A stretch of 9,937 nucleotides of DNA from a virus (lineage: Duplodnaviria > Heunggongvirae > Uroviricota > Caudoviricetes): IMG/VR virus record IMGVR_UViG_2698536681_000002; one strand, given 5' to 3'. Position numbers and translations under genes: made by a program. Positions 4,202 through 9,937 of the stretch are shown here, piece after piece (within the stretch, counting starts at the first letter, position 1; each line of letters starts with the position of its first letter). The notes under the pieces were generated by a model. It was not told the origin of the DNA, searched no databases, and saw only the letters and a program-made list of their open reading frames with translations.

Positions 4202-4672
4202 CTACTTAATGCACTGAGTGCGGATATACTCCTGTGCCCCTTCCAGTTGCATCTGCATCGTCATCAGCCGCTCTCTGAGGGTGAAATAATCCCGTTCAGC
4301 GGTGTCTGCCAGTCGGGGGCTGGTTGCATTATCCACGCCGGAGGCGGTGGTGGCTTCACGCACTGACTGACAGACTGCTTTGATGTGCAACCGACGACGA
4401 CCAGCGGCAACATCAGCGCGCAGAGTTTCATTTTCAGCTTTCGCATCAGCTAACTCCTTCNNNNNNNNNNNNNNNNNNNNNNNNNNNNNNNNNNNNNNNN
4501 NNNNNNNNNNNNNNNNNNNNNNNNNNNNNNNNNNNNNNNNNNNNNNNNNNNNNNNNNNNNNNNNNNNNNNNNNNNNNNNNNNNNNNNNNNNNNNNNNNNN
4601 NNNNNNNNNNNNNNNNNNNNNNNNNNNNNNNNNNNNNNNNNNNNNNNNNNNNNNNNNNNNNNNNNNNNNNNN
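4202..4672 (-). CDS. Rz-like i-spanin; C-terminal 85 codons visible, N-terminus inside the N run (5' end estimated)
   Basis: Visible frame 4202..4459 translates KELADAKAENETLRADVAAGRRRLHIKAVCQSVREATTASGVDNATSPRLADTAERDYFTLRERLMTMQMQLEGAQEYIRTQCIK, near-identical to my recollection of the lambda Rz C-terminal half. The ORF-track start at 4390 is an internal TTG. The 4672 end is an estimate assuming about 155 aa and an ATGA overlap with the endolysin stop. Confidence 0.75.
   Translation of the reverse strand, partial: XXXXXXXXXXXXXXXXXXXXXXXXXXXXXXXXXXXXXXXXXXXXXXXXXXXXXXXXXXXXXXXXXXXXXXXKELADAKAENETLRADVAAGRRRLHIKAVCQSVREATTASGVDNATSPRLADTAERDYFTLRERLMTMQMQLEGAQEYIRTQCIK
4264..4446 (-). CDS. 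Rz1-like o-spanin lipoprotein, embedded in the +1 frame of Rz
   Basis: MRKLKMKLCALMLPLVVVGCTSKQSVSQCVKPPPPPAWIMQPAPDWQTPLNGIISPSESG has a signal peptide with lipobox (VVVGC) and a proline-rich mature part, near-identical to lambda Rz1 as I recall it. ATG at 4444-4446 lies wholly inside the Rz frame. Confidence 0.9.
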   Translation of the reverse strand: MRKLKMKLCALMLPLVVVGCTSKQSVSQCVKPPPPPAWIMQPAPDWQTPLNGIISPSESG

Positions 4673-4880
4673 NNNNNNNNNNNNNNNNNNNNNNNNNNNN
4701 NNNNNNNNNNNNNNNNNNNNNNNNNNNNNNNNNNNNNNNNNNNNNNNNNNNNNNNNNNNNNNNNNNNNNNNNNNNNNNNNNNNNNNNNNNNNNNNNNNNN
4801 NNNNNNNNNNNNNNNNNNNNNNNNNNNNNNNNNNNNNNNNNNNNNNNNNNNNNNNNNNNNNNNNNNNNNNNNNNNNNNNN
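4461..4880. other. N-masked run (420 nt) inside the lysis cassette
   Basis: Contiguous n characters. The flanking reading frames imply it hides the C-terminal part of the endolysin and the N-terminal part of Rz. Confidence 1.
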
Positions 4881-5166
4881 CCGGTATATCGACTTTGATG
4901 TACGGGTTAATTTGTCTGGCGACAGTGGCAAGGTCTTTATTCAGGAGGGCTTTGCATTCTGCTTCGGTATACGTTTTACCGAGCATGATGTCTTTTCCGG
5001 TGTGTCCGTGACATACAGTCCATACACCAATGATATCTTTGTATGGTATGTAGCTGACACCTTCCAGACCATCGTTACCACCTGGGCCAGTGATTAACAC
5101 AGATGCTATAGCAACAGCCCCACCACCAATAGCAGCTGCAACAGCCTTGCGTAATGATGGCGACAT
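4669..5166 (-). CDS. SAR endolysin, T4-lysozyme fold, phage 21 R / RrrD-like; 95 N-terminal residues visible (3' end estimated)
   Basis: ATG at 5164-5166 with GAGG upstream. N-terminal Gly/Ala-rich signal-anchor-release segment ([30 protein letters not shown]) followed by ...[29 protein letters not shown], placing Glu35/Asp44/Thr50 at the positions I recall for the R21 catalytic triad. The 238-aa read-through ORF in the track is an artefact of translating the N run; the 4669 end assumes about 165 aa. Confidence 0.85.
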
Positions 5167-5381
5167 TATTCACCTCTCGCAGCCTTACGCTTGTCTTCTC
5201 TTATTTTGAAATACAGATTTGTCAGATAAGTCAGAAGCCCCAGAAGCAGACTTCCCAGCACACCAATCGCAGCCCACTGTGATGGACTGACCTGATCCAA
5301 CCACTGCAAAAACCAGTAGCCGGCACTGCCGGCGGAGGTGCCGTAGGCANNNNNNNNNNNNNNNNNNNNNNNNNNNNNNNN
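5166..5381 (-). CDS. Pinholin, phage 21 S-like class II holin; C-terminal 60 residues visible (5' end estimated)
   Basis: Visible frame 5166..5348 translates [60 protein letters not shown], near-identical to S21 as I recall it. Its TAA stop overlaps the endolysin ATG (TAATG). Absent from the ORF track because its start lies in the N run; the 5381 end assumes about 71 aa. Confidence 0.75.
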
Positions 5382-5744
5382 NNNNNNNNNNNNNNNNNNN
5401 NNNNNNNNNNNNNNNNNNNNNNNNNNNNNNNNNNNNNNNNNNNNNNNNNNNNNNNNNNNNNNNNNNNNNNNNNNNNNNNNNNNNNNNNNNNNNNNNNNNN
5501 NNNNNNNNNNNNNNNNNNNNNNNNNNNNNNNNNNNNNNNNNNNNNNNNNNNNNNNNNNNNNNNNNNNNNNNNNNNNNNNNNNNNNNNNNNNNNNNNNNNN
5601 NNNNNNNNNNNNNNNNNNNNNNNNNNNNNNNNNNNNNNNNNNNNNNNNNNNNNNNNNNNNNNNNNNNNNNNNNNNNNNNNNNNNNNNNNNNNNNNNNNNN
5701 NNNNNNNNNNNNNNNNNNNNNNNNNNNNNNNNNNNNNNNNNNNN
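5350..5744. other. N-masked run (395 nt) upstream of the holin
   Basis: Contiguous n characters. Only about 32 nt are needed for the holin N-terminus, leaving roughly 360 nt of unknown content. Confidence 1.
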
Positions 5745-5759
5745 GAGTCAGACATTCCC

Positions 5760-5773
5760 ACACAATATTGTGT
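5760..5773. repeat. 14-bp perfect palindrome ACACAATATTGTGT
   Basis: Exactly self-complementary, in the 63-nt visible gap between the tRNA-Gly 3' end and the N run. Confidence 0.5.
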
Positions 5774-5807
5774 CAGTGCAAATAACAACCTTCGTCTCAA
5801 ATCTCGC

Positions 5808-5882
<75 letters not shown>

Positions 5883-5885
5883 ATA

Positions 5886-5961
<76 letters not shown>

Positions 5962-5963
5962 GC

Positions 5964-6040
5964 TGGCCCACCACCGAGGACTCGAACCTCGCACCGTCAA
6001 CTTAGAAGGTTGATGCTCTATCCGGATGAGCTAGTGGTGG
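5964..6040 (-). tRNA. tRNA-Arg, anticodon UCU (reads AGA/AGG), 77 nt
   Basis: CCACCACTAGCTCATCCGGATAGAGCATCAACCTTCTAAGTTGACGGTGCGAGGTTCGAGTCCTCGGTGGTGGGCCA: all four stems pair perfectly, anticodon loop CTTCTAA, encoded CCA. It differs from host argU as I recall it, consistent with a phage-type tRNA. Confidence 0.85.
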
Positions 6041-6041
6041 T

Positions 6042-6118
6042 TGGTGGCCCTTGCTGGACTTGAACCAGCGACCTGGCGATTATGAGTCGCTCGCTCTGAC
6101 CAACTGAGCTAAAGGGCC
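6042..6118 (-). tRNA. tRNA with CAU anticodon (Met, or Ile2 if lysidine-modified; ileX/ileZ-like), 77 nt
   Basis: GGCCCTTTAGCTCAGTTGGTCAGAGCGAGCGACTCATAATCGCCAGGTCGCTGGTTCAAGTCCAGCAAGGGCCACCA: cloverleaf with anticodon loop CTCATAA. It resembles E. coli ileX and the Stx-phage ileZ type as I recall them. Confidence 0.85.
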
Positions 6119-6127
6119 GGAGGCAGA

Positions 6128-6156
6128 ATAATAACCATATGTCATCACATCTGCAA
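6128..6156 (-). promoter_or_regulatory. Candidate sigma70 promoter for the tRNA array
   Basis: On the minus strand: TTGCAG (-35, weak), 17-nt spacer, TATTAT (-10), ending 9 nt before the 5' end of the first tRNA. Confidence 0.3.
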
Positions 6157-6206
6157 ACTCATCTGACCACCAGCACGTTTAACGTCCTGTGCCGTTTTTC
6201 AGGTAT

Positions 6207-6231
6207 AAAAAAACCCGCTCATCGGCGGGTT
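6207..6231 (-). terminator. Rho-independent terminator downstream of the ORF6N gene
   Basis: On the minus strand: 7-bp stem AACCCGC/GCGGGTT with a 6-nt loop, followed by T7 (plus-strand A7 at 6207-6213). About 80 nt after the ORF6N stop and before the tRNA promoter. Confidence 0.65.
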
Positions 6232-6307
6232 TAAGCTGTGTGGCGTAGTAACCACTCTTAACAGGATATTCAACTTTTTACGATCGTAAAGTTTTCGGAA
6301 AAAATTT

Positions 6308-6871
6308 TTAAAACCGCATCAACCGCTCCACCAGTTGCTCTTTACGGGCAACGATCCACCCGTGTTGCTCCAGATAAAATTTAAACCGTTCCAGAGTACA
6401 TACCATCGCATCGGCGGGTACCTTTTCCGTGAACTCAACCTGACCGTGTTTATCGAAGTGGCTCAGTAATGCGCATCCATCATTTTCGATAGATGTGTTT
6501 TGTGCCGCTGGTGGCTGTTTCTGGTTGAAATAACAGTCTTCCAGTTTTTCGAACACTTCCCACGCCTGATCGGTTTCGAGCATTTTGGCGTGACGGGCTG
6601 CGCCACGTTCTGTCCAGAGGATGAGGGAGCGAACGTTACGGGCAATTTTCACAGAAACTCTTAAAGAGTTTTCGTTCTTCAACTCTCGTAACGCATCACC
6701 TTCTATCAGGAAAAAATGTTTACCTTCTATAAACCGTTCTTTGTTTCGATTGAAATTGTTTGTCAAACGCTGGCGCTCTGTTCCGTACAAATCAGCCAGC
6801 AGCTCTGTTGTCATGACAGGAAGATGGTTATGCGTAAGTGACGGGAGTTTTTCAATAGACGTGCGATTCAT
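6308..6871 (-). CDS. ORF6N-domain protein (KilA-N / antirepressor-like DNA-binding domain family), about 187 aa; accessory gene
   Basis: Translation MNRTSIEKLPSLTHNHLPVMTTELLADLYGTERQRLTNNFNRNKERFIEGKHFFLIEGDALRELK...RSLILWTERGAARHAKMLETDQAWEVFEKLEDCYF matches my recollection of the ORF6N consensus (NF.NNK.RF.EGKH.F...G..L.......LWTERGA.RHAK.L.TD.AWEV...LED.YF). Preferred start is the ATG at 6869-6871 (AGGA 7 nt upstream), with an alternative ATG at 6877. The longer ORF-track start at 7069 would run through the promoter/terminator modules and is rejected. Confidence 0.75.
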   Translation of the reverse strand: MNRTSIEKLPSLTHNHLPVMTTELLADLYGTERQRLTNNFNRNKERFIEGKHFFLIEGDALRELKNENSLRVSVKIARNVRSLILWTERGAARHAKMLETDQAWEVFEKLEDCYFNQKQPPAAQNTSIENDGCALLSHFDKHGQVEFTEKVPADAMVCTLERFKFYLEQHGWIVARKEQLVERLMRF

Positions 6872-7014
6872 AGACATGTCCTTTCGAATATTTTGATTTA
6901 CCCCTTTTGAGAGGGTGACCGGGCGCTCAAAACCGTCGAAAGTCGGCGGGCGTATTTCCATTGCTGGTATTGTATTAGCCGCACACCCGGTCATAAACCA
7001 AGAATTCTGGACAC

Positions 7015-7042
7015 AAAAAAACCACATGGCTATCGGGTGTGG
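7015..7042 (-). terminator. Terminator-like hairpin plus T7 tract (module 2)
   Basis: On the minus strand: stem CCACA/TGTGG around an 11-nt loop (an alternative stem GGTATC/GATAGCC is possible), followed by TTTTTTT (plus-strand A7 at 7015-7021). About 45 to 55 nt downstream of the module-2 -10 element. Confidence 0.45.
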
Positions 7043-7077
7043 ATACCGCTTTCGAGGTGTTTTGAGCACCGCGGGGA

Positions 7078-7106
7078 AATGTAAACTGCAAACCTGAAAC
7101 TGTCAA
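7078..7106 (-). promoter_or_regulatory. Candidate sigma70 promoter (module 2)
   Basis: On the minus strand: consensus -35 TTGACA (plus 7101-7106), exact 17-nt spacer, -10 TACATT (plus 7078-7083). Confidence 0.45.
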
Positions 7107-7231
7107 CACCGTCAGGTTCCAATCATCGGGTGGTGAGACGCACAGGGTTGGAACTACCGGGAAACCGACCGGCGAGCTTTTCAGCTCCCCCATGCGCCCC
7201 ACCATAATTCAGATGTGCGCGTGCATACGAC

Positions 7232-7256
7232 AATAAAAAACACGCTCGCGGCGTGT
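7232..7256 (-). terminator. Rho-independent terminator (module 1); candidate tR'
   Basis: On the minus strand: 6-bp stem ACACGC/GCGTGT with loop CGCGA, followed by TTTTTATT. About 75 to 85 nt downstream of the module-1 promoter. Confidence 0.5.
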
Positions 7257-7317
7257 GTCTGTCGCGGTCTCTATCCGGGGTTCCAATCCCGACGCCAGAT
7301 TTTGCTGGCGCGTGAGG

Positions 7318-7347
7318 AATATAGCCCCGGACAATGTGTCTGGTCAA
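7318..7347 (-). promoter_or_regulatory. Candidate sigma70 promoter immediately after the Q stop (module 1); candidate late promoter PR'
   Basis: On the minus strand: -35 TTGACC (plus 7342-7347), 18-nt spacer, -10 TATATT (plus 7318-7323). It begins 5 nt after the Q stop codon and is followed in the initial transcribed region by the hairpin GCGCCAG-CAAAAT-CTGGCG. Confidence 0.45.
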
Positions 7348-7351
7348 GCAC

Positions 7352-7738
7352 CTACATAATTCGTTCTACGTATCTGTCCATCTCCAGCCGGATATCAAGC
7401 ATCATCAACATGCCATCAATAACCCCTTCCGCTTTCTGCAGGCGCTTGCCAATACAGGTATCCGAACACCCATGTTTCCGTGCCAGACTCATAAAAGTCA
7501 TTCCACCTACGTAATAATCCACCAGCAAATCGTGCAAATCCTGATTTTTCTTGTTCAACCGGGCCATACAGCCACAAATTATCATTGCATCATCATCAGA
7601 ACACTGAGGGCGTGATTTCACTTTCGACGGAATTAACCCTTTAAAACCAGCAGCGATCGACGCCCAGGATACATCTTCATGAGTGTTTGCAGCCCAAGCC
7701 CCCCACCGTTCCATAACCTGCTGAATATCACGCGCCAT
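7352..7738 (-). CDS. Late-gene antitermination protein Q, Q21/QuuD-like family, about 128 aa
   Basis: Translation [105 protein letters not shown]... closely matches my recollection of E. coli DLP12 QuuD. Preferred start is the ATG at 7736-7738 (AGGTGA upstream, 11-nt overlap with the RusA stop); an alternative ATG is at 7759. Confidence 0.88.
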
Positions 7739-8099
7739 CGTTATCACCTGTGATTTCATAAATCTTCACGCCCAGTCGCCCACCAGGAACGAGCTGACCG
7801 CGCACAATATTGATTTCATCAAACTGCTCGTCGTCTATGAGTAGTCCGGCATGCGTCAGCGCATCCAGTGGTGCTTTCAGGATATTGTCCAGGTCACGAC
7901 GGCGCTTATCCGGTGGCTCTGCAATAATCTTTATCGCCAGCCTTCCGGACAGGTTTAATTTCAGCCGCTGCTGGCGAACAATTAGCGTCACATCACGGCG
8001 ATAACGCTCACCAACTTTTGATACAAAATATGTGCTGCCACGACGTCGCCAGTAAGTATTCACCGTCGGCGGATAAGGTAAAATAAACTCATGGCGCAT
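7728..8099 (-). CDS. rusA: RusA-family Holliday junction resolvase, 123 aa
   Basis: RusA-like motifs ([12 protein letters not shown]...[30 protein letters not shown]). ATG at 8097-8099 overlaps the upstream stop (ATGA). It sits directly upstream of Q, as in 21/82-type nin regions. Confidence 0.88.
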
Positions 8100-8352: not shown

Positions 8353-9744
8353 TCAAAAGAAACGCTCCATCTTACTGCTGTCGGTACGTGTATTGCTGTA
8401 TCTGCGCGGCTGGGGCTGCCGCATTGGGGTGGAAAGAACCTGTGCGCTTTCCTGGTCCACAGGCAGAAAATGTCCGTTATAAAAACGCCGGTAAATCGTC
8501 CCCAGAGAACCGTTACGTTGTTTCGTGATATTAATTTCTGCTATGCCTGTAGCCTGTGTATCCGGGTTGTACACTTCATCCCTGTAAAGCATCAGAATGA
8601 TGTCTGCATCCGCCTCTATTTCTCCGGAATTTTTCAGGTCTGAGTTCATGGGACGTTTATTGGGTCTGGACTCCACACCGCGGGAGAGCTGGCTCAGCGC
8701 AATCAACGGAAAACCACCGGATTTTGCCAGGCCTTTAAGCCCCTTTGAGATTTCACCCACGGCAAGGTCATGACGCCCCGTGGTTCGGGTTTTTATCAGC
8801 CCGAGATAATCAACCACCACCAGCGCCGTTTCCGGATGTTTAATCAGATGGTGTTTCGTTGTTGCGCATATCTCATCAATGGTCAGGTTCGCCTGGTCCA
8901 CCATCCAGATATTGCGCCCGGTCATCCGCCCCACCCCTTGTGAGAAACGCGCCCAGTCTTCATCTTCAAAGTGAGCCACAGATTTCAGGCGTGATACTGG
9001 CATCCCTCCAGCCGCAGACACCATACGTTCACCAATCTGGATGTTCGCCATCTCCATGGTGAACAGAAGCACACCATGCCCCTGCTCAGTCACCTTGTCG
9101 ATGATGTCCAGCGCAAGTTCGGTTTTCCCCATCGAAGGACGGGCGGCAATGAATACCAGGTCTCCGGGCTCCATACCGCCTGTTTTTGCGTCCAGTTCAT
9201 CAATACCGGTCATCAACGTCCTGGATTTCTCCAGCCCCTGATTCCGGCATTCAACACGCTCAACCACTTCCGGAAGCACATCATCAATATGTACCGGCTG
9301 AATGACGCCCTTTCCTGTCGACAGTGTGACCATCATGTTCTGCGCATCCTTCAGGGCATCTTCAGCTGCTTCACAGGTATGCGCATCACGTAATTTCTGC
9401 AGCGCCTCATTCAGTGTTTTTTCTGCATCGCGCAGTGCGGCATTGCGCCGCAACGCTGCAACATAGTGCTCCAGTGAAGACTTCACCCAGGTTTTACGCC
9501 CGGTATCAGTAATCACCGGGGCAAGTTCCGGCATCTCATTACACAACAGCACGGGGTCAATCACTCCTGAAACACGGGCCTGTCTGCAGATGCCTGTGTA
9601 GATATCCCGATACGCTCGTACAGAAAAAATGTCCGCCGGTAGTGTGATCAGAATATCCATCACTTCATGATCTGCCCCACGCAGAAAGAATGCGCCAATG
9701 ACAGCGCCTTCCAGGTCATCATTACGCCAGACTGGTGTTGTCAT
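8353..9744 (-). CDS. Replicative DNA helicase, DnaB family, about 463 aa
   Basis: DnaB-like motifs: Walker A (ARPSMGKTELALDI), and the C-terminal helicase motifs (VVVDYLGLI, ALSQLSRGVESRPNKRPMNSDLKNSGEIEADADIILMLYRDEVY, ITKQRNGSLGT). Preferred start is the ATG at 9742-9744 (GAGGTG upstream); the ORF-track GTG start at 9885 adds 47 non-DnaB-like residues. Confidence 0.9.
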   Translation of the reverse strand: MTTPVWRNDDLEGAVIGAFFLRGADHEVMDILITLPADIFSVRAYRDIYTGICRQARVSGVIDPVLLCNEMPELAPVITDTGRKTWVKSSLEHYVAALRRNAALRDAEKTLNEALQKLRDAHTCEAAEDALKDAQNMMVTLSTGKGVIQPVHIDDVLPEVVERVECRNQGLEKSRTLMTGIDELDAKTGGMEPGDLVFIAARPSMGKTELALDIIDKVTEQGHGVLLFTMEMANIQIGERMVSAAGGMPVSRLKSVAHFEDEDWARFSQGVGRMTGRNIWMVDQANLTIDEICATTKHHLIKHPETALVVVDYLGLIKTRTTGRHDLAVGEISKGLKGLAKSGGFPLIALSQLSRGVESRPNKRPMNSDLKNSGEIEADADIILMLYRDEVYNPDTQATGIAEINITKQRNGSLGTIYRRFYNGHFLPVDQESAQVLSTPMRQPQPRRYSNTRTDSSKMERFF

Positions 9745-9937
9745 GCAGCCACACCTCTGATACAAGAACGGTAGCTGGGCCAGTTGAACGACAACCAGTT
9801 GCGCCCCCCGTCTGTGATCCTGTCGGCAATGCGGGGGCTGATGAACGCTGGATTTGCCCCTATATTTCCAGACACCTGTTATCACTTAACCCATTACTGG
9901 CTTGCTGCCGTAGATATTCCCGTGGCGAGCGATAACC

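Follow-up and report, generated by a model that had tools for sequence, protein, structure and literature searches.

In lambdoid phages, the lysis genes are separated from the late promoter by serial intrinsic terminators (lambda tR′/6S RNA, Stx-phage tR′), which Q-modified polymerase has to override. Short DNA dyads serve a different purpose in the same phages, as in the operator of the phage 434 repressor, which has the form ACAA-N6-TTGT. At the 3′ end of a bacterial tRNA operon, Lalaouna et al. are said to have described in 2015 an external transcribed spacer with sponge activity, the 3′ETS-leuZ of E. coli glyW-cysT-leuZ; a spacer of this kind is co-transcribed with the tRNAs, is released by RNase E, and binds Hfq or sponges sRNAs. 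Dual-terminator sRNAs have been described at the ends of rrn operons (rrA/rrB/rrF; PMC8144298), and the Pas sRNAs of EPEC are located in the neighbourhood that extends from Q to the holin gene (bioRxiv 10.64898/2026.05.13.724894; PMC8550237).

The present analysis concerns a 14-bp palindrome next to a tRNA array in prophage DNA. It is probably a small RNA hairpin, called P2 below, that belongs to a conserved structured trailer (the element) on the minus strand of the tRNA cluster, a trailer that would stop or process the tRNA transcripts. As such, the palindrome would be an ordinary small stem, but part of a conserved structured RNA that appears to be undescribed; in the literature searched, no structured RNA linked to tRNAs and placed ahead of prophage lysis genes was found to be described. 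In kind, it comes closest to the 3′ETS of glyW-cysT-leuZ and to the rrn dual-terminator sRNAs (PMC8144298).

Gene order around the palindrome

The window, i.e., the whole stretch of 9,937 nucleotides that was analysed, carries all of its real genes on the minus strand. On all unmasked bases it is 100% identical to the genomes of several strains of Shigella sonnei, Ss046 (CP000038.1) among them. In transcription order, its features are:

8353-9885, minus strand: DnaB helicase, first in transcription order
7728-8099, minus strand: RusA
7352-7759, minus strand: antiterminator Q (Pfam Phage_antitermQ)
7126-7324, minus strand: isrK/C4-type antisense-RNA module (Rfam)
6308-7069, minus strand: ORF6N antirepressor
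6232-6211, minus strand: intrinsic terminator, tR′-like, upstream of the tRNAs
6128-6157, minus strand: promoter-like site TTTGCA-18-TATTAT, by consensus match only, about 10 nt upstream of the first tRNA
6042-6118, minus strand: tRNA(CAT), Met/Ile2 (ARAGORN)
5964-6040, minus strand: tRNA-Arg(TCT) (ARAGORN)
5886-5961, minus strand: tRNA-Thr(TGT) (ARAGORN)
5808-5882, minus strand: tRNA-Gly(TCC), last of the four (ARAGORN)
5780-5807, minus strand: A/U-rich linker of 28 nt from the CCA end of tRNA-Gly to stem P1, variable among relatives
5774-5779, minus strand: P1 5′ strand GCACUG, whose partner CAGUGC lies about 70-90 nt downstream, behind the mask
5760-5773, minus strand: the palindrome, predicted hairpin P2, in which ACACA/UGUGU forms the stem and AUAU the loop, directly adjoining P1
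5753-5759, minus strand: P3 5′ strand GGGAAUG, which includes the ATG and pairs in MFE folds with CAUCUCC behind the mask
5350-5744, minus strand: masked stretch, its content known from the 100%-identical S. sonnei genomes and also from L001 (99% identical)
5166-5349, minus strand: class II holin gene, visible 3′ part (L001/L002 annotation; Pfam Phage_holin_2_1 in S. sonnei loci)

Past the element, the lysis genes begin with the holin gene, which is followed, in order, by RrrD lysozyme, a second mask, Rz, HNH, TerS, TerL and portal. The palindrome is located in the late operon of a lambdoid prophage of the HK97/P27 type, between the tRNA cluster and the lysis cassette. Like the tR′ of lambdoid phages, the element lies between Q and the holin gene and comprises serial intrinsic terminators; unlike tR′, it stands downstream of tRNAs and is far more structured, and a canonical tR′-like terminator is already found upstream of it (6211-6232).

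The four prophage tRNAs score 56-70 bits with the Rfam tRNA model. The one with the CAT anticodon (6042-6118) is called Met by ARAGORN and tRNA-Ile (lysidine-type, ileX-like) by RefSeq in relatives, where the second slot of the array holds Arg, Lys or nothing. The -10 hexamer TATTAT just upstream of the first tRNA was also found by the consensus scan in L004 and L005, which makes three divergent contexts in total. Further upstream, directly after Q, the interval 6909-7324 contains a module that resembles c4-icd-ant of P1/P7 and isrK of Gifsy-1, with Rfam matches to isrK (77.5 bits), c4-a1b1 (50 bits), C4 (71 bits) and sRNA-Xcc1 (77.4 bits, at 6909-6992). These matches lie upstream of, or inside the 5′ end of, the ORF6N antirepressor gene, which is called at 187 aa in most S. 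sonnei records and at 253 aa in Ss046.

On the plus strand, positions 5760-5773 read ACACAATATTGTGT, 14 bases that are fully self-complementary and AT-centred, in agreement with the preliminary description, which had noted a perfect palindrome beside the tRNA array. The gap to the 3′ end of tRNA-Gly (5808), given there as 52 nt, is actually 34 nt (5774-5807). The ATG that had been placed at 5754 and described as opening into the masked region does exist, on the minus strand (5755-5753) and four bases (GGGA) after the palindrome, but it begins a frame of 10 codons only, read as MSDSLPSPVL* in the 100%-identical relatives; the same frame runs to 12 codons in P27-like relatives and to only 3 in K_EC180. 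An ORF running from this ATG into the mask is ruled out by the stop after 10 codons in the identical genomes.

The mask at 5350-5744 consists of 395 N, where the 100%-identical S. sonnei genomes have 649 nt, and that at 4461-4880 consists of 420 N, where they have 414 nt. The N-runs are not length-true, so distances measured across a mask are unreliable, and the 254-nt deletion that the length of the first N-run might suggest is ruled out by the same comparison. In S. sonnei, the 649 nt contain the rest of P3, P4, the P1 3′ strand with its U-tract, a hairpin of about 35 bp and the terminator AACUGCC..GGCGGUUUUUU; the remainder is made of about 400 nt with more terminator-like hairpins, and then the first 32 nt of the holin gene. 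The whole spacer between tRNA-Gly and the holin gene measures 680 nt, holds no annotated gene, and shares 99.1% identity with its counterpart in E. coli FDAARGOS_944 (L001). In S. sonnei, elements of the IS4 family and of IS3 type truncate the prophage soon after the portal gene, beyond the left end of the window (L152-L156, 8100-10100). The prophage is therefore defective, and the element may no longer be under selection in it.

A family of tRNA-linked trailers and its predicted fold

Taken alone, the bare palindrome is not significant. Dinucleotide-preserving shuffles of the window contain a mean of 0.57 perfect 14-nt palindromes, with at least one in 44% of shuffles, and the window itself has a second one, TTTACGATCGTAAA, at 6277-6290. 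This second palindrome is flanked by the stop of ORF6N (6308) on one side and the terminator at 6232-6211 on the other, and it borders the stretch that is homologous to the region downstream of Q in E. coli VL40. Since the bare palindrome at 5760-5773 does not go beyond chance, its significance had to come from comparison with relatives, and it is only in this comparison of sequences that it is non-random, the predicted pairing being kept there while the sequence changes.

Relatives are numerous. In a pattern scan, tRNA-Gly followed by GCACTGACA was found in 58 IMG/VR contigs as well as in S. flexneri and E. coli genome loci, and the conserved downstream hairpin was found in more than 120 IMG/VR contigs among the matches listed. 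BLAST searches of 5426 complete E. coli genomes detected one variant in 435 (about 8%) and the variant of the window in 238; the exact 68-nt trailer is present in nine, each time 100% identical, and the exact palindrome is restricted to one lineage, with 34-35 identical copies. As a whole, the family extends over hundreds of prophages of E. coli/Shigella. What is encoded upstream of the tRNAs varies among relatives (DUF1133, Q, an HTH protein or ORF6N) while the element stays in place, and tRNA-Gly directly precedes it in 131 of 133 copies. In the records inspected, no annotated feature covers the element save occasional hypothetical-protein calls, one of which was checked and lies on the opposite strand; phage SerU-LTIIb carries two copies, both without annotation. 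In all, several hundred E. coli/Shigella genomes carry this predicted structured RNA of about 290 nt between the prophage tRNAs and the lysis cassette, with no annotation as such in the records inspected.

The trailer, about 290 nt in all and upstream of the holin gene, spans the interval from the CCA of tRNA-Gly to a canonical intrinsic terminator, AACYGCC..GGCGGU6-8, on the strand of the tRNAs, which is the placement of a tRNA-operon 3′ ETS. It starts, 28 nt after tRNA-Gly, with a domain of about 90-105 nt predicted to fold into a cloverleaf-shaped four-way junction in the order P1 (G)GCACUG/CAGUGC(Y), P2 directly after it, P3, P4, the P1 3′ strand and U6-8; a hairpin of about 35 bp, an A/U-rich stretch and the terminator follow. 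With a tRNA cloverleaf this domain shares the four-way junction, a closing stem of 6-8 bp and a position directly downstream of the tRNA array; unlike a tRNA, it has other arm lengths and loops, no D/T-loop signatures, and a U-tract in place of CCA. Identity of the domain as a tRNA is not supported, neither ARAGORN nor Rfam RF00005 making a call on the element in relatives of the window.

The position of P2 is delimited by the invariant GCACTG and GGG, between which the lineage of the window reads ACACA-ATAT-TGTGT. P27-like prophages have ACACAT-TAT-ATGTGT, CACAT-TTT-ATGTG, CACAT-TATAT-ATGTG, ACATA-TTA-TATGT or ACATA-TTGA-TATGT at this place, and a second large class has GCGTA-T6-8AT-TACGT, GTGTA..TACGT or GCGTG..TACGT; the loop or spacer between the arms ranges from 3 to 10 nt across relatives. 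As far as these sequences tell, the inverted repeat is kept at this position, and neither its sequence nor its spacing is. The differences are of two kinds: either both sides have changed together (A-U to G-C, C-G to U-A), or a G-U wobble appears on the minus-strand transcript, and the arm asymmetries inspected (class B variants) are all of the wobble type.

The same P1-closed four-way junction was obtained in unconstrained MFE folds of all 42-44 unique variants, each of which has a hairpin of 3-6 bp located 0-2 nt after P1. P1 is 99% paired in 48 distinct family members and shows no covariation because it is almost invariant, while P3, GGGAAUG/CAUCUCC, covaries by eye with GGGAUGU/ACAUCCU and GGGGCG/CGCCCU in relatives. 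In a MAFFT alignment (A3), the P1 and P2 positions are 95.5% paired versus 17-46% with slid partners, and the middle pair of P2 is GC in 18 sequences and AU in 17. In a covariance-model alignment of the 48 distinct sequences, the corresponding values are 96.3% versus 16-50%, with both-sided change at four of the five P2 pairs, these changes representing few independent events, mainly two sequence classes. One P2 pair is out of register in 17 of the 48 sequences of this alignment, where the hairpin is shifted by one base (CACAU/AUGUG) according to the folds of the sequences themselves. The joint count is limited to P1 and P2: the MAFFT columns of P3 and P4 are not in structural register between classes, so these two stems were left out and judged on per-sequence folds. 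The covariance model (R1) gave no match on the window itself, where two thirds of the domain are masked.

When the larger structure is considered, its 39 predicted pairs are formed in 98.5% of cells across 21 variants, versus 27-59% with slid partners. About 163 of the cells in these pairs are G-U and 3 are A-C, an excess that points to an RNA of the late-gene strand and not to DNA symmetry or to the opposite strand. Antisense-strand folds of domain 1 are much weaker. Its fold z-scores range from -4.3 to -6.0 in three variants and from -1.9 to -2.2 in two others, the lineage of the window being the weakest (z = -1.9); for the 291-nt element of S. sonnei taken as a whole, z is -1.16 and the global MFE fold lacks P1. 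The case for structure rests on comparison and not on thermodynamics. At the level of predicted pairing, the comparison shows that P2 is kept in structure, that the fold is common to all family members, that the signal is strand-specific and that the link to tRNA-Gly is almost constant.

Downstream of the three inner arms, P1 has five G-C among its seven pairs and is followed after 1-2 nt by the conserved U6-8 tract, its "loop" being the 80-nt three-arm junction; the U-tract is kept even where it is unpaired with the long hairpin (L005). This long hairpin, behind the mask in the window, has 23-26 predicted pairs, is 98.8% paired across 21 variants and would fit the criterion of about 20 bp for an RNase III substrate. 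It lies at 2255-2350 in L156 and at 5858-5952 in L001, and many of its changes are G-U wobbles. Its 3′ arm carries AUG CAU CAU (MHHSGVVN...), opening frames of 13-85 aa depending on the variant, which in some cases are annotated as a hypothetical gene. Between the element and the holin gene there are two or three intrinsic terminators.

The palindrome had also been suggested to process or terminate the tRNA transcript. This is partly supported: the palindrome is a predicted hairpin of a conserved structured 3′ trailer, but one stem of a larger fold and not the terminator itself. Alone, it makes a 5-bp stem with two G-C pairs followed by GGGAAUG, and the terminator scan did not call it; with a stem that is not G+C-rich and no U-tract directly after it, the palindrome alone is ruled out as an intrinsic terminator.

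Alternative readings of the palindrome

A perfect 14-bp dyad with an AT centre is what a helix-turn-helix dimer, for example of CI, Cro or the ORF6N antirepressor, would be expected to bind in order to control a downstream promoter, and the arms change together between phage classes, as half-sites co-evolving with a repressor would. The palindrome further resembles the 434 operator in being a short AT-centred dyad with ACAA..TTGT, but it differs from it in a spacing of 2 instead of 6, in occurring as a single copy outside the immunity region, in having neither sequence nor spacing conserved, and in its wobble-type variation. Half-sites as different as ACACA, ACACAU, CACAU, ACAUA, GCGUA, GUGUA and GCGUG, set 3-10 nt apart, occupy the same place in collinear prophages. 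The preliminary description, which favoured an operator for a gene in the mask, had itself named degeneracy in collinear prophages as evidence against it, and such degeneracy is what they display. Nor did the repeats that might be expected of an operator turn up elsewhere: the complete 40-kb prophage L148 has one copy (at most 2 mismatches), 7 kb from cI/cro and with none near them, and the window has no other ACACA-N2-8-TGTGT. No sigma-70-like promoter was called at or just downstream of the palindrome, no real ORF follows it, and the element stays where it is when the upstream neighbour gene differs. An RNA stem is favoured over an operator because the arm asymmetries inspected are of the G-U type on one strand, because the spacer spans 3-10 nt, and because the hairpin is embedded in a strand-specific fold; binding by a regulator is accordingly regarded as very improbable. 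Still further down the scale comes control of translation, whereby the hairpin would mask or present the ribosome-binding region of an ORF starting four bases downstream. GGGA does precede the ATG and the hairpin adjoins it; against this, the frames have 10, 12 and 3 codons in relatives, the 0-1 nt between GGGA and ATG is too short for a Shine-Dalgarno sequence, and the AUG is base-paired in P3 and absent from the GGGGCG variants, so that this reading has next to no credibility.

It is also conceivable, if improbable, that the palindrome arose neutrally in an AT/CA-rich spacer, for instance through slippage in repeats resembling (CA)n(TA)n(TG)n, and has no function of its own. The frequency of such palindromes in shuffled windows is compatible with this, as are the low-complexity alternating purine-pyrimidine runs at the P2 position, the only marginally better fold of the window's variant relative to shuffles, and the defective state of the host prophage. 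However, neutral origin accounts poorly for a hairpin that occupies the same position in all 42 unique variants, including those with the unrelated, non-alternating stem GCGUA/UACGU, that pairs at 92-96% versus at most 50% in slid controls, and that is nested in a fold conserved throughout the family. A further reading accepts this same hairpin and gives it another job, as part of a tRNA-like decoy or processing substrate (RNase P/E/III), of a stable Hfq-binding RNA like 3′ETS-leuZ, or of a cis sensor that gates read-through into the lysis genes. The four-way junction with its 7-bp closing stem and 3′ U-tail would suit such roles, as would the hairpin of about 35 bp for RNase III, and the A/U-rich single strands with a U-tailed terminator downstream have the usual look of an Hfq ligand. 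The prophage sRNAs PasA/C/D occupy the same Q-to-holin interval, and the 3′ part of the element gives weak, full-length, sub-threshold STnc100 matches in two classes. Yet neither ARAGORN nor the Rfam tRNA model sees a tRNA at the element, the STnc100 matches (17.5-19.5 bits) are far under the gathering score of 47, and no similarity to PasA, PasC or PasD was found; another job for the hairpin is therefore judged rather unlikely, if less so than neutrality.

Proposed role and comparison with described RNAs

In the favoured reading, in which P2 is one stem of a trailer that stops or processes tRNA transcripts, the tRNAs would form a transcription unit of their own (a "moron") starting at the promoter-like site downstream of the tR′-like terminator. 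Their transcript would run into the trailer, which would fold and stop and/or process it by means of P1 and the U-tract and of the later terminators. P1 with its U-tract is predicted to be terminator-like, in an unusual form with a branched hairpin, and the long hairpin would suit RNase III. The contribution of P2 would be architectural, stacking on P1 and holding the junction. The insulation provided by the trailer would keep the lysis genes, holin included, silent in the lysogen, and upon induction the Q-modified polymerase would presumably read through it. The trailer may also leave a stable RNA.

If it is true that the element insulates the lysis genes, this would explain how the tRNAs can be expressed in a lysogen without killing the host; if a stable RNA results, the sRNAs known from prophages of pathogenic E. 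coli and Shigella would be joined by one linked to tRNAs. More immediately, the result is a caution against classifying a short palindrome as a regulator site when its symmetry is probably the by-product of an RNA stem. A bolder proposal, put forward tentatively and with rather more doubt than confidence, is that the palindrome marks the 5′ end of an undescribed, tRNA-Gly-linked RNA family of Escherichia/Shigella lambdoid and P27-like prophages, made up of the U-tailed junction, the long hairpin and the terminator. This RNA would be more than a passive terminator and would either be processed (RNase P/E/III) to a stable Hfq- or protein-binding RNA or act in cis as a gate into the holin-lysozyme genes.

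The element shares with 3′ETS-leuZ its place between the last tRNA and the operon terminator, its strand and its U-tailed end, and release from the tRNA precursor is plausible. In contrast to that spacer of about 50 nt, it measures about 290 nt, includes a four-way junction as well as a long hairpin (about 35 bp), is borne by a prophage and stands before lysis genes. It differs from the rrn dual-terminator sRNAs (PMC8144298) in operon type and in sequence, and its first candidate terminator would be a branched junction with a U-tract.

Like STnc100/PasD and PasA/PasC, which are terminator-ended RNAs of the Hfq type, the element belongs to the neighbourhood formed by Q, tRNAs, TerB/DUF3927 and holin-lysozyme (Rfam RF02076; bioRxiv 10.64898/2026.05.13.724894; PMC8550237). 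Unlike PasA, which is on the opposite strand, it lies on the late-gene strand. BLAST revealed no similarity of the element to the PasA, PasC and PasD1 regions of E2348/69, and identity with a Pas sRNA is ruled out, the neighbourhood being alike but the sequences unrelated and PasA being antisense to the late genes.

At the gathering threshold, no Rfam 15 family was found on the element in the window, L001, L004, L073 or 14 loci. Searching at an E-value threshold returned the tRNAs, chance miRNA-type matches on the long hairpin, and the sub-threshold STnc100 (RF02076), which is confined to the 3′ part of the element, at 17.5 and 19.5 bits with E = 0.06-0.2, and is taken as a lead only. In some variants, the long hairpin is separated from the terminator by an additional insert of about 110 nt, which CCAGAGACG...CGUCUCUGG closes (L004, 2250-2355; L073, 7600-7710; also L003, L020 and L058), and this insert is the site of the STnc100 matches. 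Parts of the element, namely the long hairpin with the insert, also match plasmids of 88-105 kb, possibly phage-plasmids, at 40 places (E. coli genome matches H131, H132 and H135).
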